Positions 622 through 22,323 of a DNA stretch of 32,000 bases are shown in pieces. Position 1 is the stretch's first letter; each line of letters begins with the position of its first letter. The DNA is from Edaphobacter aggregans. GTDB lineage: Bacteria; Acidobacteriota; Terriglobia; Terriglobales; Acidobacteriaceae. The notes below the pieces were generated by a model, which was not told the origin of the DNA, made no database searches, and saw only the letters and a program-made list of their open reading frames with translations. Where the stretch lies: NCBI RefSeq assembly GCF_003945235.1, contig NZ_RSDW01000001.1, positions 2,370,001-2,402,000 of the forward strand, given 5' to 3'. The position numbers and the translations under genes were made by a program.

Positions 622-1218
622 TCAGTGTTTCCAATGGAGGTCAGGACCACGGAAGAGTACGCCAGCGCCGATGCGGAACTGGTTTTGTCGATTGCCCTGG
701 ACGTTTCTGAGTTCGGAGTAGAAGTAGTCTGCCTGCAGGGCGCGGATCCAGATGTGCCTGGATACGGAGATGTCGAGGCCACCGCCGACGGTGAGGGCGA
801 AGGAAGTGTCGTAGCTCGTTGGCAATTTGCCAACGGGTGCGGGAAAGTAGCCGTCGAAGCCGTGGACGCCTCCGAACAACGCCTGGCCAAAGGGCTGGAA
901 GCGGGTGTGGTTGGGCACGCGCATCCGCAGGCCGCCCATGCCGTAGAAAAGGCTCAGGCCCGTGTTGAAGTTGGGGAGGTTCCCTGTGGTGTGTCCCCCC
1001 ATTTCGGCGACGGCTGAAATGTTGCGCCACACGGGCACGGAGATGCCACCGTGGCCCCCGCTCATCCAGAAGCATCCGCAGCCTCCCACAGGAGCGTTGG
1101 CACGCATCTCACTATAGACGGCGTAGGCGTCCAGGGTGTTCGATGGCTTCTGGGCCATAGCTGCCAGAGAGAGCGACAACAGCAGCGCGTAGGCGAAGAC
1201 TTGCGTCAGCTTATTCAT
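622..1218 (-). CDS. Small outer-membrane beta-barrel protein (8-strand OmpX/OmpW/OmpA-TM-like class), paralogue A, with a CGC motif
   Basis: Track ORF 622..1380 trimmed to the internal ATG at comp 1216-1218; the longer form would overlap the giant gene's 3' end. The junction reads GAA TAG GAGGAGCG ATG, so the SD abuts the upstream stop. Product is 198 aa. Sec signal MNKLTQVFAYALLLSLSLAAMA/Q is followed by about 8 amphipathic Gly/aromatic-rich strands: FWMSGGHGGISVPVW, LSLFYGMGGLRMRV, FQPFGQALFGGVHGF, FALTVGGGLDISVS, IWIRALQADYFY, NQFRIGAGVLFR. Roughly three quarters of residues are identical by eye to the 6619..7206 product. Confidence 0.85.
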   Translation of the reverse strand: MNKLTQVFAYALLLSLSLAAMAQKPSNTLDAYAVYSEMRANAPVGGCGCFWMSGGHGGISVPVWRNISAVAEMGGHTTGNLPNFNTGLSLFYGMGGLRMRVPNHTRFQPFGQALFGGVHGFDGYFPAPVGKLPTSYDTSFALTVGGGLDISVSRHIWIRALQADYFYSELRNVQGNRQNQFRIGAGVLFRGPDLHWKH

Positions 1219-1226
1219 CGCTCCTC

Positions 1227-4200
1227 CTATTCCACAATCAGCGTTACGGTAGTGTTGTGAACCAAGTTGCCGCTGGTTGCGGTGATGGTAATAACATAGG
1301 ACTGCTGCGTCTGGTTGAAGTAGCCGCCGGTTCCACAGCCAGCGATTGCTCCAAACGATATCAGCGCCAGCAGCAGCCACAAAAGCGCGCCAGGTCGTCC
1401 GCGTGCTCTTCTCAGTAGCGCGAAGGGTACTAGCAGCGTCGCAAATACCAGTGGCGTGCGAGAGCTCCGGTCGAGTGTGGCATTCTGTTTTGGAACGTTG
1501 ACGGTCATGGTCGATTGGACGCCGTCAGCTCCCGGTATTACAGGATTAGGACTGAAGGTGTAGCTTGCTCCCGCGGGTAGTCCCGACGCGCTCAGCGTTA
1601 CCGGACTGTTGTATGGAAGATTCAGATCAGGGATCTTGATTGCAAAGTTAGCAGCCCCCCCAGGCGGGACCGTCTGCGGCGGCGTGGGGCTTATGACGCC
1701 GAAGTCCGGCGCGAGGATAGTCACACTGACCAACGCGAACGGCGTTATTGTTGTGAAGTTTGTATCACCGCTATATGAAGCCGTGAGCGTGCGTTCTCCA
1801 ATAGGTAGCGTGGTGGTAATCAGCGTCGCCGTGCCATTGACGATCGCCACGGTGCCGAACGCCGTGCCGCCGTCGTAGAAGGTAATGGTCCCGGTTGCGC
1901 CTGCATTGACCATTGCCGTCAGCGTTACCGGATTACCCTGCACAGTTTGGCTTGGTGACGCAGTCAAAGTGACGAAAGTGCTCGCCTTGGTGATCGTCAG
2001 GGTGCCGTTCACTGCACGGGTGATGTAGTTTGCAAGTGCCGATCCGGTAGCGGAGGGGACGATGGGATACGTTCCCGGAGGAGAGTTGGTAGTCGCGATC
2101 GTAGATGCCGAGAAAGTAAAGGTGTCGTTGAGGACGGCACCCGTGATTGTTCCGGTAAAGGCTGGATTTGCCTCCCCAAAGACGCGCGAAGCATTGTTCG
2201 CAGACAGCGCCAGTAGGGCAGGAGTCACCGTCACGGCAAAGTTGACGGCTTGGCTAACTCCGGCTGTCATGGCAGTTGCAACAAAATCTCCAACATGTGT
2301 TCCGGTTACTATTACGCTGGCCTGTCCGCTGCCGTTAGTTGTTACGGTGGCGCTCGGCGAGAAGGTTAGGCCTGCTCCCGCGAAGGTCACCGTGGCCCCT
2401 GCAACCGGATTCCCAATGGCATTCGCGACCATAACAACCAGAGCCTGCGCGAAGGCCGTTCCACGGACAGCAGACTGGGCGTTGCCACCCACCAACTCGA
2501 TAGTGGTTGGCAGACCGGTAACAATGCTTACCGCAACGGGGCTGCTCGAGCTAACCCCGTTATTTGGGTCTCCAGAATAAGCAGCGATGATGTTGTGGGT
2601 TCCCAAACTCAGGGAACTGGTCGAAAAGGTAGCCAGCGCATTCGCATCGATGCCTACTGTCCCGAGTATTGTCGTTCCATCATAGAAGATAACTGTGCCC
2701 GTCCGGGCGGGCACGCCTGCGGATATGGGTGGAGCTACCTCCGCCGTAAGGACGACCGGTTGGCCCTGCAACTGCGGGTTCACATCAGCGGTAACGGTAG
2801 TTGTCGTTGACAGTGGAGCGATCAGGAAGAGATACGCCGTAAGGTTGCCTATCTCCGGCGAGTTTCCACCACCATTCCCACCATTAGTGTTGTGGCCGCC
2901 CTCGTTACCGTATGAGGCGTAGACGTAGAGCGTGTGCAGTCCAACCTGTTGTGGCTGGCTGAGATTAACAGTGAAGCTTGCTGGGTTTGTTCCACTTGAA
3001 CTCGTCATCGTTGCAAGATTCGATGGGTTCGCGCCGTCCACCTCGTAGTACACCTGCGTCGGTGGTGGATTGGTTACGGTGTGGCCGCTATATACACTCG
3101 TGCTGCTGAACACACTATTCACATTCACCGTGAAGCTAGGCGTGCTGTTAGCTGTCTGGAAGATATTTGTCGTCGAGATGGTCAACGGATCGACCACCCC
3201 GGCGATGGTTGTGGTCAGTGGCACGGTCTGATGTCCGTCCACATCGATTACCGCCACGCTGCCAGGGTTTGAGGGACCGGGTGAGAGATTTGTATAGATT
3301 TTGTTGATCGCAGGGTACAACAACACCTCCTGAGGACACGACCCATTTGCAGCGTTGGAACAATTCGTTGTTAGTGCGTTTCCCACAACCGGTACTGTGC
3401 TCGTGACAATGTTGCTTGCTCCATCAATAACCATCATGTTTCGGCTGTTGAAGTTCTTGACATAGACATTGTTGGTGATTGGGTTTACCGCGATCCCCCA
3501 GGGAAAACTTCCCGAACTCGACGTGTTTATTTGGGTCGGGCTATTGGTCACTCCATCGAGAACGGTCACGCTTCCGCCCTGAGGGAAAGGTAGACCGGAG
3601 TTTGAGTTGGAGACATAGATCTTATTTGTCTGCTGGTTTATTGCTATCTCCCGGGGGAAAATGCCTGCTATCGGGTTGGCGATGACCGTGTCAATGGTTC
3701 CGTCGATCACCGAAATTGTGCCGGGAATGCTGCTGTTGTTAAAAGTCGTATTGGCGACATAGATCCTGTTCGTTGCAGGATTCACTGCTATTCCCTGTGG
3801 GCCGGTTCCAACCGTCATCGTGCTCGTGACAGAGTTGCCCGCACCATTTATCACTGAAACGGTGTTGTCGGAAAAATTAGAGACGTAGATTTTGTTGGTT
3901 GCTGCGTTCACCGCGATGCCAGAGGGTGAGAAACCCACGGTTACCGTGGCAGCGATGGTCTCGGTTGTTTCGTCGATCACCGAAACGGTGTTGCCGTTAG
4001 TTAGCGGAGAGAGTGAGATAAAGGGATGGGCGACATAAACCTTCCCTGTCACCGAGTTTGCCGCTACTGCTTGAGGGTAAGGCCCCACAGTCAAGGTGTT
4101 TATGACAGAATCGCTCGCTGAGTCGATCACCGAAACGGTGCCGTCTCCAAAGTTGGTGACGTATACCCTGTTCGTCACTGGATCGACGGCGGCCAAAACA

Positions 4201-5498
4201 GGTTGCGAACCGACACTCACCGTCGCAGTAACGGTATTCGTCGCTACATCAATCGCTGTCACGGTGTCGCTGTCGGTATTGGCGGTATAAATCTTGTTGG
4301 TCACTGGGTTCAACACGACAGTTTGAGGAGAGTCCCCCGTAGGTACAGGAGACGTCGAGATCGGCGCATTGATCGCACCGTCGATCACCGATACGGTACC
4401 GGGGACAGAAGTGTAGACCCTATTGGTCACCGGGTTCGCCGCCACGATCAGGACGCTGCTTCCGGTTCCCACCGCCGCCACGGTAACAGTAGCGTTTGTT
4501 GATCCGTCGATCACAGTTACGGAAGCATCAGAAGGATTGCTGCCACCGGTAAAAGTGAAATTGCCCACATAGATCTTGTTGGTTACCGGGTTCACCGCCA
4601 ACGTATAGGGAAAGGTGCCCCCCATCGTCAGAGTGCTCGTCGTGTAATTGTTCGTTCCATCGATCACAGTAACGGTGTTGTTCGGGCTGCCAGCAAAGTT
4701 GAGTACGTAGGCCTTGTTGGTTACCGGGTTCACGACCACCATGGCGGGTACGGTTCCCACCGTTGGATGTGCGATAGCCACGTTGGTCGTTCCGTCGAAC
4801 ACCGTCAGGGTTCCAGGGCTGGCGACGTAGAACTGGTTGGTCACCGGGTTCACCGCCACCGATTGGGGGGCCCCTGATACCGCCGCCGCGGTGGGCGTAT
4901 TGCTCGCTCCATCGATCACCGTCACGTTTCCCGCGCCGGTGACGGCATTGGCTACATAGACCTTATTGGTCACCGGGTTTACTGCTATCGCGTATGGGCG
5001 ATTCCCGGTTGTAGGCACGGTAGCCGTCACGTTGTTGGTGGCGCCGTCGATCACAGTCACGTTGTTGCTGTCGAGGTTGGCGACGTAGATTTTGTTGGTC
5101 AGGGGATTCACCACGACGTTAAGGGGGGTAGTTCCCACAGGCACCGTGGCGGTAACACTATCGCTTGCACCGTCGATCACCGTTACGGTGTTGTCGGTCG
5201 TGTCGGTAACATAAATCTTGTTGGTCACCGGATTCACTGCCGCCGTAGTGGGATTAGTTCCCGCAGTCACCGCCTTTGTTACATTCGTGACACCGTTGAT
5301 GACGTTGACCGTGTGAAGAGCACCTCTGCTGGGAACGTAGATCTTGTTGGTCACTGGGTTCACGGCCACCGAAAGCCCTCCACCGGTGGTAGGCACAGCG
5401 ATTTGAGCCCTAAGTACCGTAGAAGCAGCGAACACACTCAACAACAGTAAGAGCCGATTGAGAACAGGGCGGCAGCGAAGAACGAGGGACGGCACCAT
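1227..5498 (-). CDS. Giant secreted YVTN beta-propeller repeat / Ig-like / MBG-domain protein with an unusual C-terminal membrane tail (1423 aa)
   Basis: Uninterrupted 1423-codon ORF. GAGGAGG SD (comp 5506-5512) lies 7 nt before the ATG. Sec-type signal LLLLLSVFAASTVLRAQ/IAV. About 16 repeats with core NPVTNKIYV...TVTVIDG (YVTN-family 40-residue beta-propeller repeat type). These are followed by several Ig-like repeats (pattern PVVLTAEV...IFYDGTTILGT...LGTHNIIAAYSGD). One MBG-type domain (LSANNASRVFGEANPAFTGTITGAVLNDTF...YPIVPSATGSALANYITRAVNGTLTITKA). Then a terminal Ig-like domain interrupted by two hydrophobic helices (see findings). Confidence 0.92.
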   Translation of the reverse strand: MVPSLVLRCRPVLNRLLLLLSVFAASTVLRAQIAVPTTGGGLSVAVNPVTNKIYVPSRGALHTVNVINGVTNVTKAVTAGTNPTTAAVNPVTNKIYVTDTTDNTVTVIDGASDSVTATVPVGTTPLNVVVNPLTNKIYVANLDSNNVTVIDGATNNVTATVPTTGNRPYAIAVNPVTNKVYVANAVTGAGNVTVIDGASNTPTAAAVSGAPQSVAVNPVTNQFYVASPGTLTVFDGTTNVAIAHPTVGTVPAMVVVNPVTNKAYVLNFAGSPNNTVTVIDGTNNYTTSTLTMGGTFPYTLAVNPVTNKIYVGNFTFTGGSNPSDASVTVIDGSTNATVTVAAVGTGSSVLIVAANPVTNRVYTSVPGTVSVIDGAINAPISTSPVPTGDSPQTVVLNPVTNKIYTANTDSDTVTAIDVATNTVTATVSVGSQPVLAAVDPVTNRVYVTNFGDGTVSVIDSASDSVINTLTVGPYPQAVAANSVTGKVYVAHPFISLSPLTNGNTVSVIDETTETIAATVTVGFSPSGIAVNAATNKIYVSNFSDNTVSVINGAGNSVTSTMTVGTGPQGIAVNPATNRIYVANTTFNNSSIPGTISVIDGTIDTVIANPIAGIFPREIAINQQTNKIYVSNSNSGLPFPQGGSVTVLDGVTNSPTQINTSSSGSFPWGIAVNPITNNVYVKNFNSRNMMVIDGASNIVTSTVPVVGNALTTNCSNAANGSCPQEVLLYPAINKIYTNLSPGPSNPGSVAVIDVDGHQTVPLTTTIAGVVDPLTISTTNIFQTANSTPSFTVNVNSVFSSTSVYSGHTVTNPPPTQVYYEVDGANPSNLATMTSSSGTNPASFTVNLSQPQQVGLHTLYVYASYGNEGGHNTNGGNGGGNSPEIGNLTAYLFLIAPLSTTTTVTADVNPQLQGQPVVLTAEVAPPISAGVPARTGTVIFYDGTTILGTVGIDANALATFSTSSLSLGTHNIIAAYSGDPNNGVSSSSPVAVSIVTGLPTTIELVGGNAQSAVRGTAFAQALVVMVANAIGNPVAGATVTFAGAGLTFSPSATVTTNGSGQASVIVTGTHVGDFVATAMTAGVSQAVNFAVTVTPALLALSANNASRVFGEANPAFTGTITGAVLNDTFTFSASTIATTNSPPGTYPIVPSATGSALANYITRAVNGTLTITKASTFVTLTASPSQTVQGNPVTLTAMVNAGATGTITFYDGGTAFGTVAIVNGTATLITTTLPIGERTLTASYSGDTNFTTITPFALVSVTILAPDFGVISPTPPQTVPPGGAANFAIKIPDLNLPYNSPVTLSASGLPAGASYTFSPNPVIPGADGVQSTMTVNVPKQNATLDRSSRTPLVFATLLVPFALLRRARGRPGALLWLLLALISFGAIAGCGTGGYFNQTQQSYVITITATSGNLVHNTTVTLIVE
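3290..5370 (-). repeat. Array of about 16 in-frame YVTN-type beta-propeller repeats (period roughly 125-130 nt)
   Basis: The motif GTGAACCCGGTGACCAAC-like (V-N-P-V-T-N) recurs on the coding strand near 5350, 5230, 5100, 4970, 4845, 4725, 4580, 4430, 4305, 4180, 4050, 3900, 3775, 3640, 3480 and 3300. The protein shows repeated NP[VLA]TN[KR][IV]YV ... VTVID units. Boundaries are approximate. Confidence 0.8.
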
Positions 5499-6180
5499 TG
5501 GGAGACCTCCTCAACGCATTTGTCTGGGAATAAGGGTGCAGTCCGACCGAGGTGGTGTATCTCCATCGTCATATCCGTTCCGGTTGAGAGCCAGAACTGC
5601 AAGGACACACCGTCGCGCAAGATCAAGGAACCGAAGTTGGCACGCGGCGAAGACTCACTCCCGCCTGCCAGTGCTCAGCACTTTACATGCAAGATAGTCG
5701 AGTTGTCACGCACTGTGTCCAAATTCGAACTTGGTTCGGAGTTCTATAAACAAAAGTCGGCGCTGGAGATTTAGCCATCAATACGAGCGCCCCGTTTGAG
5801 GCTTCAGCATTCCTCGGATCGCGGCCAATTGCTCGTTTGTTCCAAATGTAGGTAGTCTGCCTACGTCGCGTCGAGTTCTAAATTGAAAAATAGGCTGGGG
5901 ACGGGGCGGTTCTGAATGCCAAAGCCAAACCGAATTTGCTGGCAGCTTCAGCGATGTTTAGAAAGTAGGGTTAGGACGTCCCGTCATCGCATTCGCTTAC
6001 CTGACGAGGATTCGACGCAAACCGCCTCTGCTGCTTGGTCAGAAACACCTGAAGTTGCAAAAAAACGATTATTGGAGAACTGCGAGGGATTCGGCTAATC
6101 AAAATCGAGCGCAATCTGAATAACTTAGAGAAATCTATCAATACGTTAGAGAGCGGAAAACAACCCGACGCAACGCTTAT

Positions 6181-6210
6181 TGGACCCGTAATGGACCCAC
6201 AGTTGGACCC
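6181..6210. promoter_or_regulatory. Three phased direct repeats TGGACCC (spacing 11 and 12 bp); candidate transcription-factor site
   Basis: TGGACCCgtaaTGGACCCacagtTGGACCC. Copies start at 6181, 6192 and 6204, inside the gene-free spacer between the two cassettes. Function is unproven. Confidence 0.3.
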
Positions 6211-6618
6211 ACGCTGGCGCACGCGATTGACAACGCGGCACGAACGGCAACCAGCTAGGGTTACCTAAGCACTACGTCATCTTGACTGGCCTTGACTCGC
6301 AATGACCTTCAAGTGCGTACGCTTGAAGTTCCGATAATCCGTTTCTAGGAATTACAAATTCACTTGTCCGAGAAGCCGACATTACGGGCCAAGTGACGAA
6401 AAGAGCGTTTCCCGGTACTAATCCGTAGTGCGGGTTTCTACTCATGTTCAATGAGTGCTAAGTCATGTTCTCATCAACTGACAATTCTGGGTGATTTGGC
6501 AACCGTTTGCGCCTCCTTAGGGATTACGATTACCAATCGGCGAGAACATCTGCCCGGAGATTCGTGATGCAGGTATGGCTCCGCGATCCTTGAAATAATT
6601 GTCGACCAGATCGCCTTG

Positions 6619-7206
6619 CTACTTCCTGCTGCCACGGAAGAGAATCCCTGCCCCGATGCGCAACTGGTTCTGGTTGTCTCCCTGCAAGTTGCGTAGCGAG
6701 GTGTAGTTGTAGTCGGCCTTCAGCGCACGTATCCAGATATGCCTTGAGATAGCCACATCCAGGCCTCCGCCGATGGCCATGGAATATGAAGTATCGTAAC
6801 TGGTCGGCAATTTCCCCACCCGTGCCGGGAAGTAGCTGTCGAAGCCGTGGACACCGCCGAACAACGCCTGAGCGAAGGGTTGGAACCGTGTGTGATTGGG
6901 CCAGCGCATGCGAACCCCACCCATACCGGAGACCAGGCTCAGGCCGGCATTGAAGTTGGGGATATTGCCCGTGTGATGGCCGGCTACTTCCGCCAAGACC
7001 GAAAAGTTCCTCCATACCGGATACGAGATTTCACCCGTGCCGCCGGACATCCAGAAGCAGCCGCAGCCGCCTACCGGAGCGTTGGCGCGCAGTTCGCTGA
7101 ACGTCACCGATGCGTCGATGGTGTTGGCTGGTTTCTGTTGCGCTACCACTGCTGGGGCGAGCGATAGCAGCAACGGGTAGACGAAGATGCGTAGGCGTCG
7201 GTTCAT
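6619..7206 (-). CDS. Small outer-membrane beta-barrel protein, paralogue B, with a CGC motif
   Basis: Track ORF 6619..7368 trimmed to the ATG at comp 7204-7206. The junction to the upstream giant gene (GAA TAG GAGGAGCG ATG AA) is identical to cassette A. Signal MNRRLRIFVYPLLLSLAPAVVA/QQ. It has the same strand pattern and the same ANAPVGGCGCFWMSGG segment as paralogue A. Confidence 0.85.
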   Translation of the reverse strand: MNRRLRIFVYPLLLSLAPAVVAQQKPANTIDASVTFSELRANAPVGGCGCFWMSGGTGEISYPVWRNFSVLAEVAGHHTGNIPNFNAGLSLVSGMGGVRMRWPNHTRFQPFAQALFGGVHGFDSYFPARVGKLPTSYDTSYSMAIGGGLDVAISRHIWIRALKADYNYTSLRNLQGDNQNQLRIGAGILFRGSRK

Positions 7207-7214
7207 CGCTCCTC

Positions 7215-10200
7215 CTATTCGACAGTCAGGGTTACGGTTGTGCTGCGAATCAGAGTTCCGCTTGTGGCCGTCACGGTGATCGTGTAGGTCTGTTCGGTCT
7301 GCGAGAAGTAGCCGCCCTCTCCGCATCCCGACACAGCGCCGAGCGAGACCAGCGCCGCCAGCATCCATATCAGCAGCTTCTGTGGTCGCCTGCGATATCG
7401 CTTCAGACGGGCAAACGGCAACAACAGCAACGCGAACGCGACAGGTCCGAGGCGACGGCTGCGCGAAGCCATATGGCTTTGCGGAGGAACGCTAACGGTA
7501 AACGTCGTATTGGCTCCCGATGCTCCCGGTGTGACTGTGGCGGGGTTGAAGGTGTAGGTCGCGCCCGGTGGCAGGTTCGTCGCGCTCATCGTCACAGCAT
7601 TGGTGAACGACCCATTCATCGAACTGATGACGATGGTGAAGTTCGCCGAAGCTCCCGGTGGGATGAGCTGCCGTCCCGTGCTCGAGGCCACGGTAAAGTC
7701 TGGCGGCGGCGGGGTGACCACCAGTGTGACCGGCGGTGAGGTGGCCGGCGCGAAGTTCGCGTCGCCGCTGTAGATTGCCGTGATGATGTGCGTCCCTGGA
7801 GCGAGCGTCGTCACCAGCGTCACGGTTATGCCGTCCGTCCTCCCGGTGTTGGTTGGGACCGGCACGGTTCCGAGCACGGTTGTGCCATCATCAAAGGTCA
7901 CGGTTCCAGTGGCCCCGGCCGGCACCGTCGCGGTCAGTGTCACCGAGCTGCCTCCCACTGACGGGCCCGTCGGCGGTGTCACAATTATGTTGTCTATCGT
8001 CAGAATTCCGTTCACGAAGGCGAAGCCGTAGTTCGTCGCAGACAACGTGCCCTGCGTCACCATGATCGGATAGCTGCCAACCGGGGAGGCCGTCGTTGCC
8101 GTGGTCGATACAGCCGCTGCTCCCGAGACCACGGTAGAGGTATCGCCGTTGACGAAGCCGGTGATTGTCGTCGTGAACGGCGGATTCGCCAGACCAACCA
8201 CTCGCGAGGCATGGTTCGCTGTGACGGTGAGGGTCGCCTTGGTCACGGTCAGGATTCCGTTCACGAAGATGAAGCTGTAGTTTTTCGCAGCCAGCGTCCC
8301 CTGCGTTGCCGTGATCGGATAGGCGCCGACCGGGGAAGCCACTGTTGCCGTCGTCGATACAGCAGCCGCACCCGAGACTACGGCAGGGATATCGTCGTTG
8401 AGGAAGCCGGTGATTGTCGTCGTCAAGGGTGGATTCGGCTGACCATACACCCGCGAGGCGTTGTTCGGGGTCACGGTTAGCGTCGCCGGGGTCACGGTCA
8501 GTGTGCCGTTCACGAAGGCGAAGCTGTAGTTTGTAGCAGCGAGCGTTCCCTGCCCGATCGCGATGGGATAGCTGCCTACAGGTGAACTCTCGGTCGCCGT
8601 GGTCACCACCGTGGGCGCGCCGGTGACTGAGCTGGCTGGCGTGTCGCCGCCGACGAAGCCGGTGATCGTATAGGTCAGCGCTCCGTTATGCCCACTGAAC
8701 ATGCGTGTACTGTTGTTTGCGGTTACCGTCAGGATCGCGGGAGTGACCAGTTGCAGCAGTACGTCCGAAGTCGAAGCCGCGTGCGATCCGTCTCCGCTGT
8801 ATGCTGCTGTAATCGAATGTGTTCCCTGCATCAGCGCACTGGTCGCGAAGACCGCAACTGCTCCCGCAAGGGTAACGGGGGCACCCAGATTCGTTGCACC
8901 ATCCTTGAATTGAATGGTGCCTGTAGCTCCGCTGACCACGGTCGCAGTGAACGTCACTGTCTGGCCGAAGTCAGAGGGGTTATCCGAAGAGACGAGAGAA
9001 ACTGCGATCGGCCCTGGACTTACCGTCAGGAAAACCGGAGCACTCAAGCTACCGTCGCGGTTCGAGTCGCCGATAAAAACTGCCGTCAGCCTATGTGGCG
9101 ATCCCGCCACAGTGAAAGTGGACACTGTGAGGCTCGCTTCGCCCGTGGACGAGAGCGGGACTGCTCCTAACAACGTGGTGCCATCGTAGAAGTTCATGGT
9201 GCCCGTCGCTGTCGCGCCGCCTAACGTAAATGGGGTCACATTGGCTGTCAAAGTCACGGGCGTTCCGAACACGATCGTATCTGCCGTCGAAAGCACCAGT
9301 GTTGTCACTGTGGTCACCGGCGTAGCCGTCAATGGAATTGTTGGCGAGGTGCTACCACCAAAGTTCGCGTCGCCCGGATAGATTGCCTCGACATTGCGCG
9401 TCCCGCTACCTGGGATGCTTACCCCAGGTAACACCGCTGTCGTTGTTTGCGTCACCTGGTTCAGCAAGATGCTGATGTCATTAGCGCCATAATTTGGCAC
9501 CGCCAGATCCGCGATACCGTCGCCGTCGAAGTCGCCAACGGCTACTGCGTAGGGGAGATGGCCAACCGTGATCGGCGATCCCGAAGCTAGCGCGAAGCCG
9601 CCACTGCCGTTCCCCAGGAATATGCTCACGTCATCAGCGTCGAGATTCGCCACCGCCAGATCGACAATGCCGTCACCATTGAAGTCCCCCACGGCCACGT
9701 CGTTAGGACCGGCACCCGTCGCGACCGGCGATCCCGGGGCTGGCGAGAAGCCGCCATGACCGTCCCCCAACAATATGTTCATGTCATTCGAGAGATAATT
9801 CGTCACCGCCAGATCCGCGATGCCATCACCGTTAAAGTCTCCCACGGCGACGGATTGGGGATGATTACCCGCCGTAACGGGCGATCCTGGGGCCGGCAAG
9901 AAGCCACCACTGCCGTTTCCTAGCAATATGCTCACATTGGCGGAGGTCTGGTTTGTCACCGCCAGATCGGCGATGCCATCTCCATTGAAGTCACCCACGG
10001 TAATAGCGTAGGGACGAGTACCCACCGGGACTGTCGACCCCGAAGCCGAGAAGCCGCCACTACCGTTCCCTAGCAATATAGTCACGTCATTAGAACCCCA
10101 ATTTGCCACGGCTAGATCCGCAATGCCGTCGCCATTGAAGTCCCCTATGGCCACACCAAAGGGATCGGTGCCCACCGCAATCGGTGATCCCACAGCTGGC

Positions 10201-13200
10201 GAGAAGCCGCCACTACCGTTCCCTAACAATATGCTCACGTTAGTAGAGCCCGAATTTGCCACGGCCAAGTCCGCGATGCCGTCGCTATTGAAGTCCGCTA
10301 CGACCACACCAAAGGGGCTGGGGCCAACCGCGATTGGAGATCCTAGAGCTGGCGAGAAGCCGCCATGGCCGTTCCCCAGCAGTATGGTCAAAGTATTATC
10401 GGTATCATTTGCCACCACCAGATCCGCGATGCCATCGCCATTGAAGTCTCCAATGGCTGCAGCCACTGGTAAGTTGCCCACTGCGATTGGAGATCCCATA
10501 GCATTCGCAAAGCCGTGCCCCAGCGTTGGGGTCCCTGACGTCGCCGTTCCCAGAACACTATTGCCGTTTGTGGTATCGATGAAAGATACGCTGCCCGTGG
10601 GGCCTAGCGTAGCGTTCCCGGTACCCACGACGGTTGCTATCAGCGTGTAGTTCCCTGGAGTGCCGCTGGAAGTAATGGCTGTCGTCGTCGGGAAGGTTGC
10701 CAGTGGCGACACTGTTACTGCTTGTGCGGAGGAAATGCTCGCCGTATATGCTTTTGTCCCCGCAAAGACCGCAACATAGTTATGACTGCCGACACTCGGA
10801 ATAAATCTCAGTGCTGCAGTCCCTGCGCTCGTCAACTGCGCTGTACCCACGACAGCCAGGCCTGTGCAAGACGGCGCCGTTGCATCGCAGAATGTCACCA
10901 AGCCCGGATGGACGGCTGCACCACTGGTCGTCACCGTCGCAGTCAGGGTCATCACTGTCTGTGCCGCTAACGGTGAACCTGGCGACACTGCCAGCGAGGT
11001 CGCCGTCGGAAGCGAAGTAACCTGCTGTGTCAGCACATCCGAAGTCATCGGAAGATGACTTCCATCCCCGCTGTAGACCGCGGTTATCGGACGCGCTCCT
11101 GGCGTCAACGAGCTGCTTGTGTAAGCAGCAACTCCCGCCGCAAGAGTCACAGGTCCGCCCAGGTTCGCTGCACCATCCCTGAATTGAATAGTGCCTGTGG
11201 CTCCGCTGGGCACGGTCGCCGTAAACGTCACCGACTGACCAAAACTGGAAGGATTATCCGAAGAGACAAGGGAAACTGTGGGGGACGATGGACTTACCGT
11301 TAGCGAAACCGGACCGCTTGTGCTGGAGAGGAAGTGCGTGTCACCTTCATAGAGCGCCGTCAACGTGTGAGTACCTACCGCGAAGCCAGGAATCCCTCCG
11401 CTTGGCACCGTCAGGCCCGCTTCGCCAGCGGATGAGGTCGGCACTGTTCCTAACAACGTGGCTCCATCGTAGAAGCTCATGGTGCCCGTCGCAGTCAAGC
11501 TGCCTGCCGTGTATGGGGCCACAGCGGCCGTCAAAATCACCGGCATTCCGAACGCAATCGTGTTTGACGTCGAAAGCACCAGCGTGGTCGCCGTTGCTAC
11601 ACGCGAGCCCGTCAGTGGAATTGTTGGCGAGGTGCTGTCAGCGAAGTGCGTATCTCCGGGATAGGTTGCCTCGACAGGGCGAATCCCGCTGCCTGGTATG
11701 CTCACCCCGGGTAACACTGCCGTCGCCGTCTGCGTCACTTGATTCAGCAATATGCTTACGTCATTCGAGTCGAAATTTGGCACAGCCAGATCCGCAATGC
11801 CATCCCCATTGAAGTCACCAATCGCTACGGCATAGGGCCAAGTGCCCACCGCAACCGGCGATCCCGGAGCCGACGCGAAGCCGCCACTGCCGTTCCCCAC
11901 CAAGATGCTGACATTGTTGGATTCGAAATTTGGCACAGCTAAATCCGCGATGCCATCCCCATTGAAGTCACCAACGACTACATCATTGGGAAAACTGCCC
12001 ACAGCGACAGGCGATCCCGTAGCTGGTGCGAAGCCACCACTGCCGTTCCCCAGCAAGATGCTCACAGTATCCGCAGTTACATTTGCCACCGCCAGGTCCG
12101 CATGGCCATCTCCATTGAAGTCACCAACTTCAACAGCAACGGGAAAAGTGCCCACCGCGACCGGCGATCCCGGAGCTTGCGTGAAGCCGCCTCCACCGTC
12201 GCCCAGCAAGATGCTCACATTACCATCTCTTTGATTTGTTACCGCCAGATCCGCGCGGCCATCCCCATTGAAGTCGCCAACGGCCACACCATAGGCCCCT
12301 CCACCCACCGCGACCGGCGATCCCGAAGCTTGTGTGAAGCCGCCAGTGCCGTCCCCCAACAAAATGCTCACATCGTTACTGGAGAAATTTGTCACCGCCA
12401 GGTCTGCGATGCCGTCCCCATTGAAGTCCCCCGCCGCCACAAGGTAGGGATTGGTGCCCACAGCGACCGGCGATCCCGGAGCCGACGAGAAACCGCCACT
12501 GCCGTTCCCCAGCAATATGGTTACCGTGCCAGAGTCCGTATTTACCACCGCCAAATCCGCGTGGCCGTCACCATTGAAATCCCCAACGGCCAGACCATAA
12601 GGCCCGGCACCAACCGTAATCGGTGATCCCGTAGCTGGTGCGAAGCCGCCACTGCCGTTCCCCAGCAATATGCTTATAGTAGAGTCCGAATTCGACACCG
12701 CCAGGTCAGCGTGGCCGTCGCCATTAAAGTCCCCAACGGCTGCACCTACGGGCAGCTCGCCCACCTCGATTGGAGATCCCGTAGCATTTACAAAGCGGTG
12801 CCCCAGCGTTGGGGATCCCAGCGTCGCCGTTCCCACATTATTGCTGTTTGTAGTGTCGATGAACGATACGCTGCCTGTCGGGCCTAGCGTAGCGTTACCG
12901 GTACCCACGACGGTTGCCGTCAGCATGTAGGCCCCGACACTGCCGCTGGAAGTAATGGCGGTCGTCGTCGGGAAGGTTGCCGGTGGGGATACCGTTAATG
13001 CTTGCGCTGAGGAAGTGCTCGTCGCATACGCTGTTGTCCCCGCAAAGATCGCAATATAGTTATGACTGCCGATGGCCGGAGTAAACCGCAGCAACGCAGT
13101 CCCTGCGCTCGTCAATTGCGCTGTACCCACGACGGCCAGGCCCACGCAAGGCGGCGCCGTTGCCTCGCAGAATGTCACCAGCCCCGGATGGACAGCTGTA

Positions 13201-13388
13201 CCACTGGCCGTCACCGTCGCCATCAGGGTCATCACTGTCTGCGCCGCCAAAGGTGAACTCGGCGACACTGTCAGCGAGCTCGCCGTAGTAGTTTGCGCCC
13301 GCATTATCGTTCCGGGCAGCTGGACGGTCACCAGGAGAAGAACCACCTGTATCACACGGCGTAACTCACAGGCACAGAAAAGCTTCAT
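7215..13388 (-). CDS. Giant secreted FG-GAP/VCBS beta-propeller (2 x 7 blades) / Ig-like / 3x MBG protein with the same C-terminal membrane tail (about 2057 aa)
   Basis: The track ORF runs 7215..13418. I prefer the ATG at comp 13386-13388 (MKLFCACELRRVIQVVLLLVTVQLPGTIMRAQ/TTT) because AGGAGG (comp 13395-13400) lies 6 nt upstream. There are two blocks of seven GDFNGDG[IH]ADLAV...ILLGNGSGGF blades (integrin-alpha FG-GAP type). These are flanked by Ig-like repeats, then three tandem MBG-type domains, an Ig-like domain, and a terminal split Ig-like domain with a TM hairpin. Confidence 0.92.
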   Translation of the reverse strand: MKLFCACELRRVIQVVLLLVTVQLPGTIMRAQTTTASSLTVSPSSPLAAQTVMTLMATVTASGTAVHPGLVTFCEATAPPCVGLAVVGTAQLTSAGTALLRFTPAIGSHNYIAIFAGTTAYATSTSSAQALTVSPPATFPTTTAITSSGSVGAYMLTATVVGTGNATLGPTGSVSFIDTTNSNNVGTATLGSPTLGHRFVNATGSPIEVGELPVGAAVGDFNGDGHADLAVSNSDSTISILLGNGSGGFAPATGSPITVGAGPYGLAVGDFNGDGHADLAVVNTDSGTVTILLGNGSGGFSSAPGSPVAVGTNPYLVAAGDFNGDGIADLAVTNFSSNDVSILLGDGTGGFTQASGSPVAVGGGAYGVAVGDFNGDGRADLAVTNQRDGNVSILLGDGGGGFTQAPGSPVAVGTFPVAVEVGDFNGDGHADLAVANVTADTVSILLGNGSGGFAPATGSPVAVGSFPNDVVVGDFNGDGIADLAVPNFESNNVSILVGNGSGGFASAPGSPVAVGTWPYAVAIGDFNGDGIADLAVPNFDSNDVSILLNQVTQTATAVLPGVSIPGSGIRPVEATYPGDTHFADSTSPTIPLTGSRVATATTLVLSTSNTIAFGMPVILTAAVAPYTAGSLTATGTMSFYDGATLLGTVPTSSAGEAGLTVPSGGIPGFAVGTHTLTALYEGDTHFLSSTSGPVSLTVSPSSPTVSLVSSDNPSSFGQSVTFTATVPSGATGTIQFRDGAANLGGPVTLAAGVAAYTSSSLTPGARPITAVYSGDGSHLPMTSDVLTQQVTSLPTATSLAVSPGSPLAAQTVMTLTATVTTSGAAVHPGLVTFCDATAPSCTGLAVVGTAQLTSAGTAALRFIPSVGSHNYVAVFAGTKAYTASISSAQAVTVSPLATFPTTTAITSSGTPGNYTLIATVVGTGNATLGPTGSVSFIDTTNGNSVLGTATSGTPTLGHGFANAMGSPIAVGNLPVAAAIGDFNGDGIADLVVANDTDNTLTILLGNGHGGFSPALGSPIAVGPSPFGVVVADFNSDGIADLAVANSGSTNVSILLGNGSGGFSPAVGSPIAVGTDPFGVAIGDFNGDGIADLAVANWGSNDVTILLGNGSGGFSASGSTVPVGTRPYAITVGDFNGDGIADLAVTNQTSANVSILLGNGSGGFLPAPGSPVTAGNHPQSVAVGDFNGDGIADLAVTNYLSNDMNILLGDGHGGFSPAPGSPVATGAGPNDVAVGDFNGDGIVDLAVANLDADDVSIFLGNGSGGFALASGSPITVGHLPYAVAVGDFDGDGIADLAVPNYGANDISILLNQVTQTTTAVLPGVSIPGSGTRNVEAIYPGDANFGGSTSPTIPLTATPVTTVTTLVLSTADTIVFGTPVTLTANVTPFTLGGATATGTMNFYDGTTLLGAVPLSSTGEASLTVSTFTVAGSPHRLTAVFIGDSNRDGSLSAPVFLTVSPGPIAVSLVSSDNPSDFGQTVTFTATVVSGATGTIQFKDGATNLGAPVTLAGAVAVFATSALMQGTHSITAAYSGDGSHAASTSDVLLQLVTPAILTVTANNSTRMFSGHNGALTYTITGFVGGDTPASSVTGAPTVVTTATESSPVGSYPIAIGQGTLAATNYSFAFVNGTLTVTPATLTVTPNNASRVYGQPNPPLTTTITGFLNDDIPAVVSGAAAVSTTATVASPVGAYPITATQGTLAAKNYSFIFVNGILTVTKATLTVTANHASRVVGLANPPFTTTITGFVNGDTSTVVSGAAAVSTTATTASPVGSYPIMVTQGTLSATNYGFAFVNGILTIDNIIVTPPTGPSVGGSSVTLTATVPAGATGTVTFDDGTTVLGTVPVPTNTGRTDGITVTLVTTLAPGTHIITAIYSGDANFAPATSPPVTLVVTPPPPDFTVASSTGRQLIPPGASANFTIVISSMNGSFTNAVTMSATNLPPGATYTFNPATVTPGASGANTTFTVSVPPQSHMASRSRRLGPVAFALLLLPFARLKRYRRRPQKLLIWMLAALVSLGAVSGCGEGGYFSQTEQTYTITVTATSGTLIRSTTVTLTVE
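7990..8740 (-). repeat. Three tandem 249-bp repeats encoding MBG-type domains
   Basis: The marker CCGTTCACGAAG(G/A) recurs at 8008, 8257 and 8506, exactly 249 bp apart. The protein units are ...LTVT(A/P)NN(A/S)(T/S)R...TTTITGF...SPVG(S/A)YPI...TNY(S/G)F(A/I)FVNG(T/I)LT(V/I). Confidence 0.85.
9456..10510 (-). repeat. FG-GAP blade array B (7 units, about 153 nt / 51 aa period)
   Basis: Seven [GA]DF[ND][GS]DGI[AV]DL[AV]VAN... units are read in the protein. ATTGAAGTC markers lie 153 nt apart, for example at 10287 and 10440. Confidence 0.85.
11740..12790 (-). repeat. FG-GAP blade array A (7 units)
   Basis: Seven GDFNGDG[HIR]ADLAV... units are read in the protein. This is the counterpart of array B, one super-module upstream. 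Confidence 0.85.
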
Positions 13389-13666
13389 CTGCGTCCTCCT
13401 GACGGATGTCTTGCACAAATTCAGTTGTGAGGTTTTCGTGTCTTTGTTCGGGGTCTACTGATCCGGGGAGAATGGGATTCCGGGAGCATGTGGAATCAGT
13501 CTGACAGTACAAACCCAAGGGATGAACAGCGAGGTATACCGGAACTTACGCATCGGAGTCAATACCTCGAGAACAACTTCCAGTGTTATCGCCAACATTC
13601 GCCTTGTAAGAGGTATTTGGGGGCGCTGCGATCTCGTTCATTTGCGGAATCACGACATCATAATGC

Positions 13667-13708
13667 GTAAAAAGAGAACAGGCCATAGCACTCATTGAGT
13701 GCTATGGC
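13667..13708 (-). terminator. Strong intrinsic-terminator-like hairpin (12-bp perfect stem, 3-nt loop, U-rich tail on the minus strand)
   Basis: GCCATAGCACTC (13682-13693) / att / GAGTGCTATGGC (13697-13708). On the minus strand the stem is followed by CTGTTCTCTTTTTAC. No annotated gene ends nearby; the closest is the IS110 transposase, which ends at 14209. Confidence 0.6.
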
Positions 13709-14208
13709 AATTCATCCGCCAAGTTACTTGTCCAAAGGACTCGGCTTGCAGCGAATGCGAATAGAAACCGGGTGGAGCAATATGCGGTAGAACGATAAAA
13801 AGCCCTGATCAACGGAAAACAACATTGACAACAGGGACCTGCTCAGAGAAAACGCGCTTGTCGAAAGTGATCTAGCGTCGCACCTATGTTGCTTCAATGA
13901 GTGCATTGGCCTTCCATGAGAAGGCCGGTCGGTGTCAACCCGTTTTTTCTGTGGTGGGGGCAAGTCCATCTCCTGGCCGATGTGAACGCGATTTTGCACG
14001 CCGAGTTACTTTTGTCGCCACCCTTCCATCCGCACTCTGAGTGAGCTTTCAATAGCTCGGTGCAAGTTGGGTGTTCTCGATTCAGCCGGTGCTGCCACCT
14101 GTTAGAGCGACCTTTGACTCGATCTCTCAGCTGGAGTGTTGGGCCAGGCCAATGACGCAGTCACCGGAACTCGGCTTATGACGTTAAACCTCCATCCTCT
14201 GGGCTGAA

Positions 14209-15312
14209 CTATGCGGCTGCCGGCAGTGTAGCCCGACTGCTTGGCCGTAGTGGCACATAAACCTCTCTGCTCACCCATAGTCGATGCAGCAGGACGGCCA
14301 GCTTACGCGCGACCGCGATCACTGCGCGTTTCTTCCCGCGCTTGCCTCCGTGCTCAGCCAGCTTCATGCCCCATCGGCGCAGGTCGCTGTCGACTCCCCA
14401 GGGACCGAGTACGTGGTGGGCAGCCTGCACCAGAAGTGCTCGTAGATACGGATCGCCCTCTTTGCTGATGTGCATCTGCGGCTCGCTCTGTCCCGAGTTA
14501 CGCCTTCCAGGCTGGAGACCTACGTAGCAGGCTGCATCCCGGCTCTTGCGAAAACGGTGTGGATCTTCCAGCGTCAACATGTACGTGAGGGCGATTAGCG
14601 TTCCCACTCCCTTGATCTGCTTCAACTGCTCTGCTTCGGGATATCTGTTCCGCGCCATGGACTCAAGCAGCTGGTCGTACTCGCAGATCCGTTCGCTGAC
14701 CGACTCTATCTCTCTCATCATCGGTTCCAGTGCACGCTTCAACTCCGGACTCAGATCCTGGGCCGCCTGCGGCTTCATCCCTGGTGCGTTGCATCCGCGG
14801 AGCCGCTCCCCGTAGGACTTCGTCAGACCGCGCGCCGCGTTGACCAACATCGTCCGTGTGCGGACCGGAGCGGCCCGCGCCCGGATCACCGTAAGATCCG
14901 CTTGTGCCTCGGCGCTCCGATGCTTCACTGGGCACAGCAGCTGCGGATCGATCCTTACGAGTCGCGCAAGTGTCCTAGCGTCGAGCCGATCATCCTTGCG
15001 CCTGCTCTCCCCGATTAGCCGCACGCTGCGCGCGTGGGCCACGATCGCCTCATGACCGAGTTCGCTGAGCAACCGACTTACCCACGGTGAATGCGTTCCG
15101 GTCTCCAGTGCGATACGGCTCCGAGGCATCACTCCGAAAACCTCTTTTATCGCCTTGGGCGTCGTGCTCACCTTCTGCTCCAGCAGCACGTCACCTGCAT
15201 CATCCAACACGCAATAAAAGCTCGCCCTGTCGCCCAAATCCAGACCGACGGTCAGGCGTCCGTCCTGCTTGTTGAGTGTCTCCTGCATCATCGTGGTGGT
15301 AAGCTTTTTCAT
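14209..15312 (-). CDS. IS110-family (DEDD) transposase/recombinase, 367 aa
   Basis: N-terminal RuvC-like DEDD region (VGLDLGDRASFYCVLD ... IALETGTHSPW ... KDDRLDARTLARL). C-terminal Transposase_20-type region (LKQIKGVGTLIALTYMLTLEDPHRFRKSRDAACYVGLQPGRRNSGQ...ISKEGDPYLRALLVQAA). GAGGAG SD directly upstream. Confidence 0.92.
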   Translation of the reverse strand: MKKLTTTMMQETLNKQDGRLTVGLDLGDRASFYCVLDDAGDVLLEQKVSTTPKAIKEVFGVMPRSRIALETGTHSPWVSRLLSELGHEAIVAHARSVRLIGESRRKDDRLDARTLARLVRIDPQLLCPVKHRSAEAQADLTVIRARAAPVRTRTMLVNAARGLTKSYGERLRGCNAPGMKPQAAQDLSPELKRALEPMMREIESVSERICEYDQLLESMARNRYPEAEQLKQIKGVGTLIALTYMLTLEDPHRFRKSRDAACYVGLQPGRRNSGQSEPQMHISKEGDPYLRALLVQAAHHVLGPWGVDSDLRRWGMKLAEHGGKRGKKRAVIAVARKLAVLLHRLWVSREVYVPLRPSSRATLPAAA

Positions 15313-15511
15313 CGCCGGTCTCCTCTATCTCCCGCGCTTCGAGCGCGTCGATAACTTGGGAGCTTAACGCATCCCGTTGGAGACCGGCCTTCTCATCCCA
15401 TCTGTCATCGCCATTTGACAGGATCAGGTCACTTGTCCGCTTCACCGGCTATTCGGAAATTACCGCCCATATGGCATTTCAACTTCCGTGTCGCGGACGA
15501 TGCCGGAAGTT
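15313..15511 (-). other. Highly structured IS110 5' leader (SD-sequestering stem plus further hairpins); candidate bridge/guide-RNA region
   Basis: Perfect 10-bp inverted repeat GCCGGTCTCC (15314-15323) / GGAGACCGGC (15379-15388); the first arm overlaps the transposase SD. A nested hairpin CGCGCT-tcg-AGCGCG lies at 15333-15347. An 8-bp stem AACTTCCG (15481-15488) / CGGAAGTT (15504-15511) is also present. Confidence 0.5.
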
Positions 15512-15710
15512 AGCTGACGAGAAGTGAAAGTCAACGAACCGGGTTCGAATCCATGGACCCATTCAGGGTAGTCGCCACCTGTAACTAATTGAAAATAATG
15601 GTCGGCCCTAGTGGACGATTTTCGAACTTTCGATGAGACGATCCCTCTTTCAATGCCATCGATTCAAACTGCAGGGTGACTTTGGTGGAGATTCGGAAGG
15701 CATCAAGATA

Positions 15711-21965: not shown

Positions 21966-22323
21966 TTTGATATAGCCTTCGGTAGATTCAGCACCCGGAC
22001 AAGCTAGCTTGATCGTCTTAAGTAGTTGTTCGAGGGCTGCCCAAGGAGTCCGACACCTCCTTTGAGACCTATTGCACAGGCATGTATCTGCGCAGAATGG
22101 CTGAGGAAGACGGGATGTAGGCTCTCGGAACCTTTATCTCACGCAACAGCAAGGGCAATACAGCGTGGGCCTGGGGCAAATATCAGGCGTTTCTGCCTTC
22201 CTGTTTCGAAGGAACGTCCCTTACAAATGCAGCCTTGCAGTTCGCTTTTGAACAATCGCTCCATAGACAGTTGACCGCTTAGGGCGGCGATGTTGTTATC
22301 CTCAAATTCCCACCGGAGGCACC

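Follow-up and report, generated by a model that had tools for sequence, protein, structure and literature searches.

Two large proteins with a lipobox-bearing C-terminal tail

The DNA analysed here, referred to as the window, is a stretch of 32,000 nucleotides of Edaphobacter aggregans (Acidobacteriaceae; NCBI RefSeq assembly GCF_003945235.1, contig NZ_RSDW01000001.1, positions 2,370,001 to 2,402,000). It carries two minus-strand genes for large proteins, A and B, which end in the same type of C-terminal tail: a short hydrophobic helix (transmembrane segment 1, TM1), a basic cluster, a second hydrophobic helix (TM2) that runs into a lipobox-like motif with a cysteine, a linker and a terminal β-hairpin. 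Each of the two genes is followed by a gene for a small protein predicted to form an outer-membrane β-barrel. From its N-terminus, the A protein consists of a Sec-type signal, YVTN/NHL β-propeller repeats, the domains Big_3_5, MBG_2 and Big_3_5, and an immunoglobulin-like (Ig-like) domain that is split by the two helices. A protein identical to the gene A product (P0016) is called on independent public assemblies.

The features of gene A and its partner gene are listed below. Values of the predicted local distance difference test (pLDDT) are from an AlphaFold2 (AF2) model of the A tail, and profile positions are those of the tail alignment described in the next section.

1227–5498, minus strand: gene A, 1423 amino acids (aa), carrying the split Ig-like domain and the tail
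5406–5498, minus strand: probable N-terminal signal peptide of A, MVPSLVLRCRPVLNRLLLLLSVFAASTVLRA followed by Q, with the cleavage site placed by eye and the hydrophobic segment at residues 11–31
1491–1712, minus strand: N-terminal part of the Ig-like (DUF5980-like) domain, residues 1263–1336 (APDF...TMTVNVP), comprising all strands except the last two; profile positions 1–75; pLDDT ~90
1458–1490, minus strand: linker KQNATLDRSSR, residues 1337–1347, joining the interrupted domain loop to TM1; pLDDT <50
1413–1457, minus strand: TM1, TPLVFATLLVPFALL, residues 1348–1362, a short hydrophobic helix with a conserved Pro
1392–1412, minus strand: basic cluster RRARGRP, residues 1363–1369
1335–1391, minus strand: TM2 and lipobox, GALLWLLLALISFGA-IAGC, residues 1370–1388, with the Cys1388 codon at 1335–1337
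1302–1334, minus strand: post-Cys linker GTGGYFNQTQQ, residues 1389–1399, bearing the G-x-GGYF-x-Q motif that is conserved in the barrel-associated subtype
1230–1301, minus strand: terminal β-hairpin SYVITITATSGNLVHNTTVTLIVE, residues 1400–1423, the last two Ig strands; profile positions ~133–162; pLDDT ~93
1219–1229, minus strand: junction TAG-GAGGAGCG-ATG, comprising the A stop codon and a ribosome-binding site, with the barrel starting 8 nucleotides on
622–1218, minus strand: barrel A, 198 aa, with a signal peptide and a predicted 8-stranded outer-membrane β-barrel

TM1 of A has ~15 uncharged residues with the Pro in the centre and is shorter than TM2, which contains the most hydrophobic 19-residue segment of each whole protein (2.18 in A and 2.00 in B on the Kyte–Doolittle scale). 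A conserved VP-x-Q motif falls within the linker ahead of TM1. Gene B and its partner have the following features.

7215–13418, minus strand: gene B, an open reading frame of 2067 aa from TTG, encoding FG-GAP repeats, Big_3_5 and MBG_2 followed by the same type of split Ig-like domain and tail; translation probably begins at the ATG at 13388, ten codons further in
7218–7706, minus strand: split domain and tail of B as a whole
7485–7706, minus strand: N-terminal part of the Ig-like domain of B
7404–7448, minus strand: TM1 of B
7377–7403, minus strand: basic cluster KRYRRRPQK
7323–7376, minus strand: TM2 and lipobox, LLIWMLAALVSLGA-VSGC, with the Cys2032 codon at 7323–7325
7290–7322, minus strand: post-Cys linker GEGGYFSQTEQ
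7218–7289, minus strand: terminal hairpin of B
6619–7206, minus strand: barrel B, 195 aa, 72–75% identical to barrel A

The A and B proteins are 50% identical across their last ~340 aa, and their N-terminal parts do not match. The 79-residue A tail quoted in the original prediction, which was made from the DNA letters alone, is the exact translation of 1230–1466 on the minus strand, and the paralogue that it described is indeed encoded at 7218–7463 as an 82-residue tail of the same layout. Its figure of about 38 residues for the piece after the cysteine has to be corrected to 35 (36 including the Cys). The arrangement of helix, Arg cluster, helix and lipobox, with the lipobox at most 90 aa ahead of a stop codon, occurs in only two reading frames of the window, those of A and B; no further such tails are found in the window, where the remaining lipobox-like strings lie in non-genic frames that lack this layout.

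Conservation of the tail

Both tails are members of the NCBIfam family NF058595, 'invert_tail', whose full name is 'lipo-invert putative C-terminal anchoring domain-containing protein' (release 20.0, June 2026; curated cutoff 37 bits). The model matches tail A with 48.9 bits (E 7e-13, model positions 4–112 of 113) and tail B with 53.7 bits (model positions 9–112 of 113), and it is also matched by 39 of 39 relatives tested. The original prediction had known of no described sorting signal with such a layout, and had itself named coverage of the tail by an existing family model as grounds for giving that claim up; NF058595 is such a model. The family name corresponds to one of the three alternatives that had been offered, in which the internal lipobox is processed. 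NF058595 is reported for the excised tails and is not listed when the full-length A and B proteins are scanned, probably because their length and repeats trigger a filter; annotation pipelines may under-call the family in repetitive proteins of such length. The tail is not covered by a Pfam model.

An initial word-indexed search returned only five homologues. An exhaustive profile search (E up to 0.001) that used the aligned last 166 residues as query returns 13,728 proteins, the majority of which carry an ordinary Ig-like repeat. Among the best 150 of these 13,728 proteins, 60 match the whole profile, and the match ends at most three residues from the C-terminus in 58 of them and at most nine residues from it in the remaining two. 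Conservation was counted in 64 representatives of 50%-identity clusters. A cysteine in lipobox context is present in all 64, with Gly as the +2 residue after the Cys in 57, and the basic cluster is equally constant, with 3–7 Arg or Lys residues per 9 aa in 64/64 (mean 4.7) and nearly no acidic residues; the conservation of Cys and Arg cluster that had been proposed as a check is thereby confirmed. TM2 has a median length of 17 aa, and the distance from the Cys to the C-terminus is 34–46 residues (median 35). For TM1, the median number of uncharged residues is 16, and 54 of 58 cases include a Pro. Because the layout is repeated at the C-terminus of 64 cluster representatives and retains its Cys, basic cluster and spacing in them, it is not a product of chance. 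What is added here to a real and conserved layout, for which a curated family model already exists, is the evidence for a split domain and for pairing with a barrel gene, which the curators may already have recorded.

One Ig-like domain split by a membrane insert

The proposal that the membrane hairpin is inserted into the loop that precedes the final two strands of a single Ig-like β-sandwich is supported by three kinds of evidence, namely tandem-repeat relatives, in silico splicing and AF2 modelling. In the tandem-repeat relatives, uninterrupted repeats of ~100 aa match positions 1–75 and then ~133–162 of the tail profile back to back. A total of 293 such adjacent pairs is found, with gaps that are nearly all between -5 and +10 residues. 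An ordinary repeat reads '...STLTVTTAASTPTGTYTLTITGTSGSLVHSATVSLVV', and its short loop 'AASTPTG' is replaced by ~60 residues in the tail. Removal of the insert in silico has a corresponding effect on matches to the Ig-like Pfam family DUF5980 (PF19410; gathering score 27.1 bits, model length 97). Intact B gives a partial match below threshold (21.5 bits, model positions 8–57), and B without the insert gives 35.2 bits in one stretch across the splice (model positions 7–93 of 97). Spliced A remains below threshold with 15.6 bits, and a single stretch still spans the splice.

In the AF2 model of the A tail, pLDDT is ~90 for residues 8–80 and ~93 for the terminal hairpin, and ~55 for both helices. 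The Foldseek matches of this model are Ig-like domains, among them a sialidase linker domain and the S-layer protein SbsC, with a query-normalised template-modelling score of 0.47; the N-terminal part alone could attain at most 0.44. A sequence search of the PDB with the tail profile gave nothing meaningful.

The co-encoded outer-membrane barrel

The protein encoded directly downstream of each tail gene has a signal peptide and eight predicted strands. Against Pfam OMP_b-brl (PF13505; gathering score 28.7 bits), barrel B scores 34.2 bits, above the cutoff, and barrel A 24.4 bits, below it; NCBIfam has no model that matches the barrel. The AF2 model has eight strands with a predicted template-modelling score (pTM) of 0.70. 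Foldseek retrieves NspA, Ail, OmpX and OmpA for this model, with E values of 1e-7 to 1e-6, the top match being NspA (1p4t; query-normalised template-modelling score 0.64, E 1.4e-7). The protein thus resembles NspA, Ail, OmpX and the N-terminal domain of OmpA (PF13505) in its signal peptide and strand number; unlike these, it belongs to a distinct conserved subfamily with a Cys-Gly-Cys (CGC) loop that is paired with lipo-invert tail genes. Homologues of barrel A are 70–85% identical to it, a conservation far above that of the passengers, as we call the large N-terminal parts of the tail proteins.

The barrel start lies 8 nucleotides past the stop codon in both cassettes, and the junction of cassette B (7207–7217) is identical to that of cassette A. 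The stop-to-start junction TAGGAGGAGCGATG is common to both window cassettes and to a locus of an Edaphobacter metagenome-assembled genome (MAG; L005, 1079–1092). This identity in three loci points to conserved translational coupling, and, judged from the junction sequence, the barrel gene is apparently coupled to the tail gene. Pairing was assessed for 51 tail genes, 47 from reference genomes or MAGs and four from contig look-ups. A barrel homologue lies immediately downstream on the same strand in 42 of the 51, and in 43 with a better profile. In the reverse direction, both of the two look-ups that started from barrel homologues show a large Big_3_5 protein with FG-GAP or YNCE β-propeller repeats that ends 8–11 nucleotides upstream, and the tail is confirmed in one of these two proteins.

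The pairing does not extend to all tails. Seven divergent tails (L019, L038, L041, L045, L047, L052 and L053), which end near position 3100–3250 of their loci, have a post-Cys linker rich in Gly, Ser, Thr and Pro in place of GGYF-x-Q and no downstream barrel. A further locus, L012, has the GGYF motif and no barrel. Because the divergent tails lack it, the barrel belongs to the main subtype and is not part of the core mechanism. The suggestion that the tail is a sorting signal handed to the co-encoded barrel accordingly draws support from the conserved gene pairing but cannot describe the core mechanism. For the main subtype, the barrel may be an outer-membrane docking partner.

The most conserved barrel segment across divergent homologues is NAPVGGCGCFW in the predicted extracellular loop 1 (1066–1098, minus strand, with an equivalent in barrel B), whose mean column identity is 0.72, compared with 0.33–0.60 in other segments of the protein. 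Conservation is unusual for the outward loops of small outer-membrane barrels, and that of loop 1 suggests a fixed partner or a redox role. A disulfide bond between the tail Cys and the Cys-Gly-Cys of this loop, which would link passenger and barrel covalently, would make sense of the most conserved barrel segment together with the single invariant Cys of the tail. We nevertheless regard such a hand-over as very improbable: the residues flanking the tail Cys fit a signal peptidase II (SPII) site and not merely a free cysteine, the Cys is kept in tails without a barrel, and a cysteine lipidated through a thioether could not form a disulfide.

Topology and proposed processing

Because the sequences on both sides of the insert belong to a single exported domain, TM1 should begin, and TM2 should end, on the same, periplasmic side of the membrane, with the Arg loop in the cytoplasm. 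This out-in-out topology agrees with the positive-inside rule, and the two linkers that flank the helices are of matching length (11–13 residues). TM1 would then be a stop-transfer segment with its N-terminus out and its C-terminus in, and RRARGRP would be at the same time the cytoplasmic loop and the n-region of a lipoprotein signal. We compared the segments with a rule of the PROSITE PS51257 type, which requires a lipobox Cys, an uncharged h-region and Lys or Arg in the n-region. Of 64 excised segments, 58 pass, and both RRARGRP-GALLWLLLALISFGA-IAGC of A and KRYRRRPQK-LLIWMLAALVSLGA-VSGC of B have all elements. The rule also places the Cys within N-terminal residues 15–35, which holds solely for the excised segment; in the full-length proteins, the residue is Cys1388 of 1423 in A and Cys2032 of 2067 in B.

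Based on these observations, we hypothesize that the tail acts as a lipoprotein signal of inverted topology at the C-terminus, placed in the last loop of the Ig-like domain, and that a lipidated hairpin completes this domain non-covalently, a reading to which we give an even chance. The N-terminal signal would route the large passenger through Sec. TM1 would halt transfer, leaving the Arg cluster in the cytoplasm, and TM2 would re-insert with its N-terminus in and its C-terminus out, forming a complete SPII signal together with the Arg cluster and the lipobox. The last 35 residues would pass to the periplasmic side. We infer that Lgt would next lipidate Cys1388 of A or Cys2032 of B and that LspA would cleave before this residue. 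The resulting 36-residue lipopeptide would donate the last two β-strands of the Ig-like domain, so that the passenger would be held to its lipid anchor by strand complementation and not by a peptide bond. In the main subtype, the dedicated 8-stranded barrel would be the likely outer-membrane partner. No conserved third gene, such as one for a sorting enzyme, was found within ~3 kb on either side in 59 loci, whole genomes not having been searched. No dedicated sorting enzyme therefore appears to be encoded nearby, which fits processing by the housekeeping enzymes Lgt and LspA. The more specific proposal, that an SPII cut in a domain loop leaves the passenger held by complementation on a triacylated 36-residue peptide as a natural split-domain lipid anchor made by housekeeping enzymes, and that tail gene and coupled barrel form an uncharacterised two-gene module that displays interchangeable giant adhesins on the outer membrane of acidobacteria, is a tentative one, which we think somewhat doubtful.

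Several points weigh against a processed internal signal. We know of no case in which Lgt and LspA process a signal that lies >1300 residues beyond the N-terminus. Even after cleavage, the TM1–TM2 remnant would continue to hold the passenger in the inner membrane, so the lipid anchor looks redundant unless this remnant is removed. TM1 is short, with 13–16 hydrophobic residues and a Pro, and its score in B is marginal. The packing of the hairpin against the rest of the domain is a prediction from AF2 confidence values and homology. The barrel is missing beside divergent tails, and its role is not general. Finally, literature searches on lipo-invert, on internal or C-terminal lipoboxes and signals, and on sorting in Acidobacteria found no paper or experiment on this layout; a preprint on the HPI S-layer of Deinococcus was rejected as a match, the signal there being an ordinary N-terminal one.

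The tail might instead be an uncleaved inner-membrane anchor, a TM1–TM2 hairpin that tethers the last Ig-like domain and the passenger while the Cys is unprocessed or lipidated without consequence. Such an anchor would call for no unprecedented enzymology, and two hydrophobic helices around a basic loop obey the positive-inside rule. However, a single C-terminal helix would suffice for this purpose, and it would go unexplained why the lipobox is kept in full in 64/64, small -1 residue and +2 Gly included, and why the insert is always positioned in a domain loop so that a detachable hairpin comes after the Cys. In addition, an outer-membrane barrel accompanies the passengers, which resemble surface adhesins (FG-GAP, YVTN, Big_3_5, MBG). 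Taken together, we consider an uncleaved anchor unlikely.

With regard to the processed internal signal, the fate of the TM1–TM2 remnant might involve a further protease. A helix-breaking Pro in TM1 with its N-terminus out, and a TM2 with a freed periplasmic end, would suit rhomboid- or RseP-type intramembrane proteases. Separate translation of the lipopeptide from an in-frame internal start was also considered and rejected: the residue before the Arg cluster is not conserved as a start codon, and in A no ribosome-binding motif is seen upstream of the candidate start.

Comparison with known systems

The A and B tails do not differ structurally from other members of NF058595. Like bacterial lipoprotein signal peptides, which are processed by SPII with Lgt, LspA and Lnt, they have a basic n-region, an h-region of ~17 residues and a lipobox of the type [LVIM][STAG][GAS]C with a small -1 residue. 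In contrast to such signal peptides, the tail signal of A is located at residues ~1363–1388 of a protein of 1423 aa with an N-terminal signal of its own, an extra helix ahead of it restores the N-in orientation, and the 'mature lipoprotein' would be just 36 residues long.

The wider group of tripartite C-terminal tags comprises PEP-CTERM with exosortase, GlyGly-CTERM with rhombosortase and PGF-CTERM with archaeosortase. MYXO-CTERM, the target of myxosortase, is a C-terminal tag of large surface proteins in diderm bacteria that consists of a TM helix and a cytoplasmic Arg-rich stretch and has an invariant Cys thought to be lipidated (PMC11980579). The lipo-invert tails share with these tags the TM and Arg elements, the invariant Cys and the apparent purpose of fixing the C-terminus to the envelope. 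However, their order is reversed: the Cys comes only after the TM helix, the Arg cluster and a second helix, and a folded β-hairpin follows it. Moreover, no dedicated sortase-like gene accompanies them in the neighbourhoods, and no tag model matches.

The order of TM helix and Arg cluster as in MYXO-CTERM (PMC11980579) nevertheless raises the question of a sortase-type tag, in which an intramembrane protease would cleave an element made up of TM1 and the Arg cluster, the passenger would be passed to the barrel or another envelope component, and the lipobox would be accessory. The helix-breaking Pro conserved in TM1, the conserved VP-x-Q upstream of it and the conserved barrel pairing would fit such a tag. 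The midcut-by-XrtH model (NF033207) also embodies the concept of a sorting signal away from the extreme C-terminus, in mid-protein, and gives weak matches to 5 of 39 tails (best E 3e-4). These matches are, however, far below a meaningful score, the window tails do not match NF033207, PEP-CTERM or other sorting-tag models at E up to 1, and no exosortase context is seen. A candidate sorting enzyme is not conserved in the neighbourhood, and the element does not sit at the extreme C-terminus, as 61 residues (Arg cluster, second helix, Cys and β-hairpin) follow TM1; in tripartite tags, LPXTG included, the protein ends with the signature motif, TM helix and basic cluster. The conserved lipobox would also be unaccounted for, and we judge a tag of this kind quite unlikely as the explanation of the tail. 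A sortase-type step could be compatible with the internal lipoprotein signal, as the activity that removes the TM1–TM2 remnant.

Incomplete Ig-like folds that are completed by strand complementation are known from chaperone–usher pilins and from engineered split CnaB domains. By analogy, the tail would be an Ig-like sandwich that receives strands from a separate polypeptide. It would differ from both in that its two pieces start in one chain and would be parted by SPII, and in that the donated piece would carry a lipid.

If the proposed processing is correct, it would constitute a third way to fix the C-terminus of a surface protein, besides sortase-like transpeptidation and plain transmembrane anchors. 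A dedicated enzyme would not be needed, as the universal lipoprotein pathway would be reused on an internal signal and a domain would deliberately be cut in two. It would also mean that Lgt and LspA can work far from an N-terminus, which would change lipoprotein prediction, and the tail could serve as a portable tag for the C-terminal lipid anchoring of proteins. With the evidence for a split domain and for pairing with a barrel gene, the putative anchoring idea of the curators becomes directly testable. Little is known about the envelope biology of Acidobacteria, which are abundant soil bacteria, and a modular cassette of adhesin and barrel that is multi-copy and strain-variable bears on their surface attachment.

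Distribution and genomic context

Carriers of the tail are Acidobacteriaceae and other Terriglobia, including Edaphobacter, Granulicella paludicola DSM 22464, Silvibacterium bohemicum S15, Terracidiphilus and Candidatus Sulfotelmatobacter, and a genome can have several copies. In G. paludicola DSM 22464 and S. bohemicum S15 the tail gene comes with a barrel gene (loci L026 and L035). Tail and barrel cassettes are also present in three MAGs labelled as Acetobacteraceae (Alphaproteobacteria; L020, L021, L022 and L025), two of them on contigs of 110–153 kb, which could reflect horizontal transfer or mis-binning or mis-labelling.

Within the window, a stretch of ~9.8 kb (5797–15596) comprises barrel B, gene B and an IS110-family transposase gene (14209–15312, minus strand). 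This stretch is absent from a public metagenome contig (L001) that is elsewhere 98.5–99.6% identical and in which gene A comes directly after the CarboxypepD_reg/OMP_b-brl_4 gene, so that the second cassette represents a strain-level insertion or deletion beside a mobile element. A large serine recombinase with Resolvase, Recombinase and Zn_ribbon_recom domains is encoded at 22290–23774 on the plus strand, less than 10 kb from the IS110-family RNA-guided transposase, and this part of the window may be mobile or recombination-prone. Further along, at 24556–26727 on the minus strand, lies a gene for a 723-aa protein with the architecture of a membrane regulator, in which an N-terminal OmpR/CadC-type DNA-binding domain (Trans_reg_C) is combined with TolB/PD40-like β-propeller repeats.

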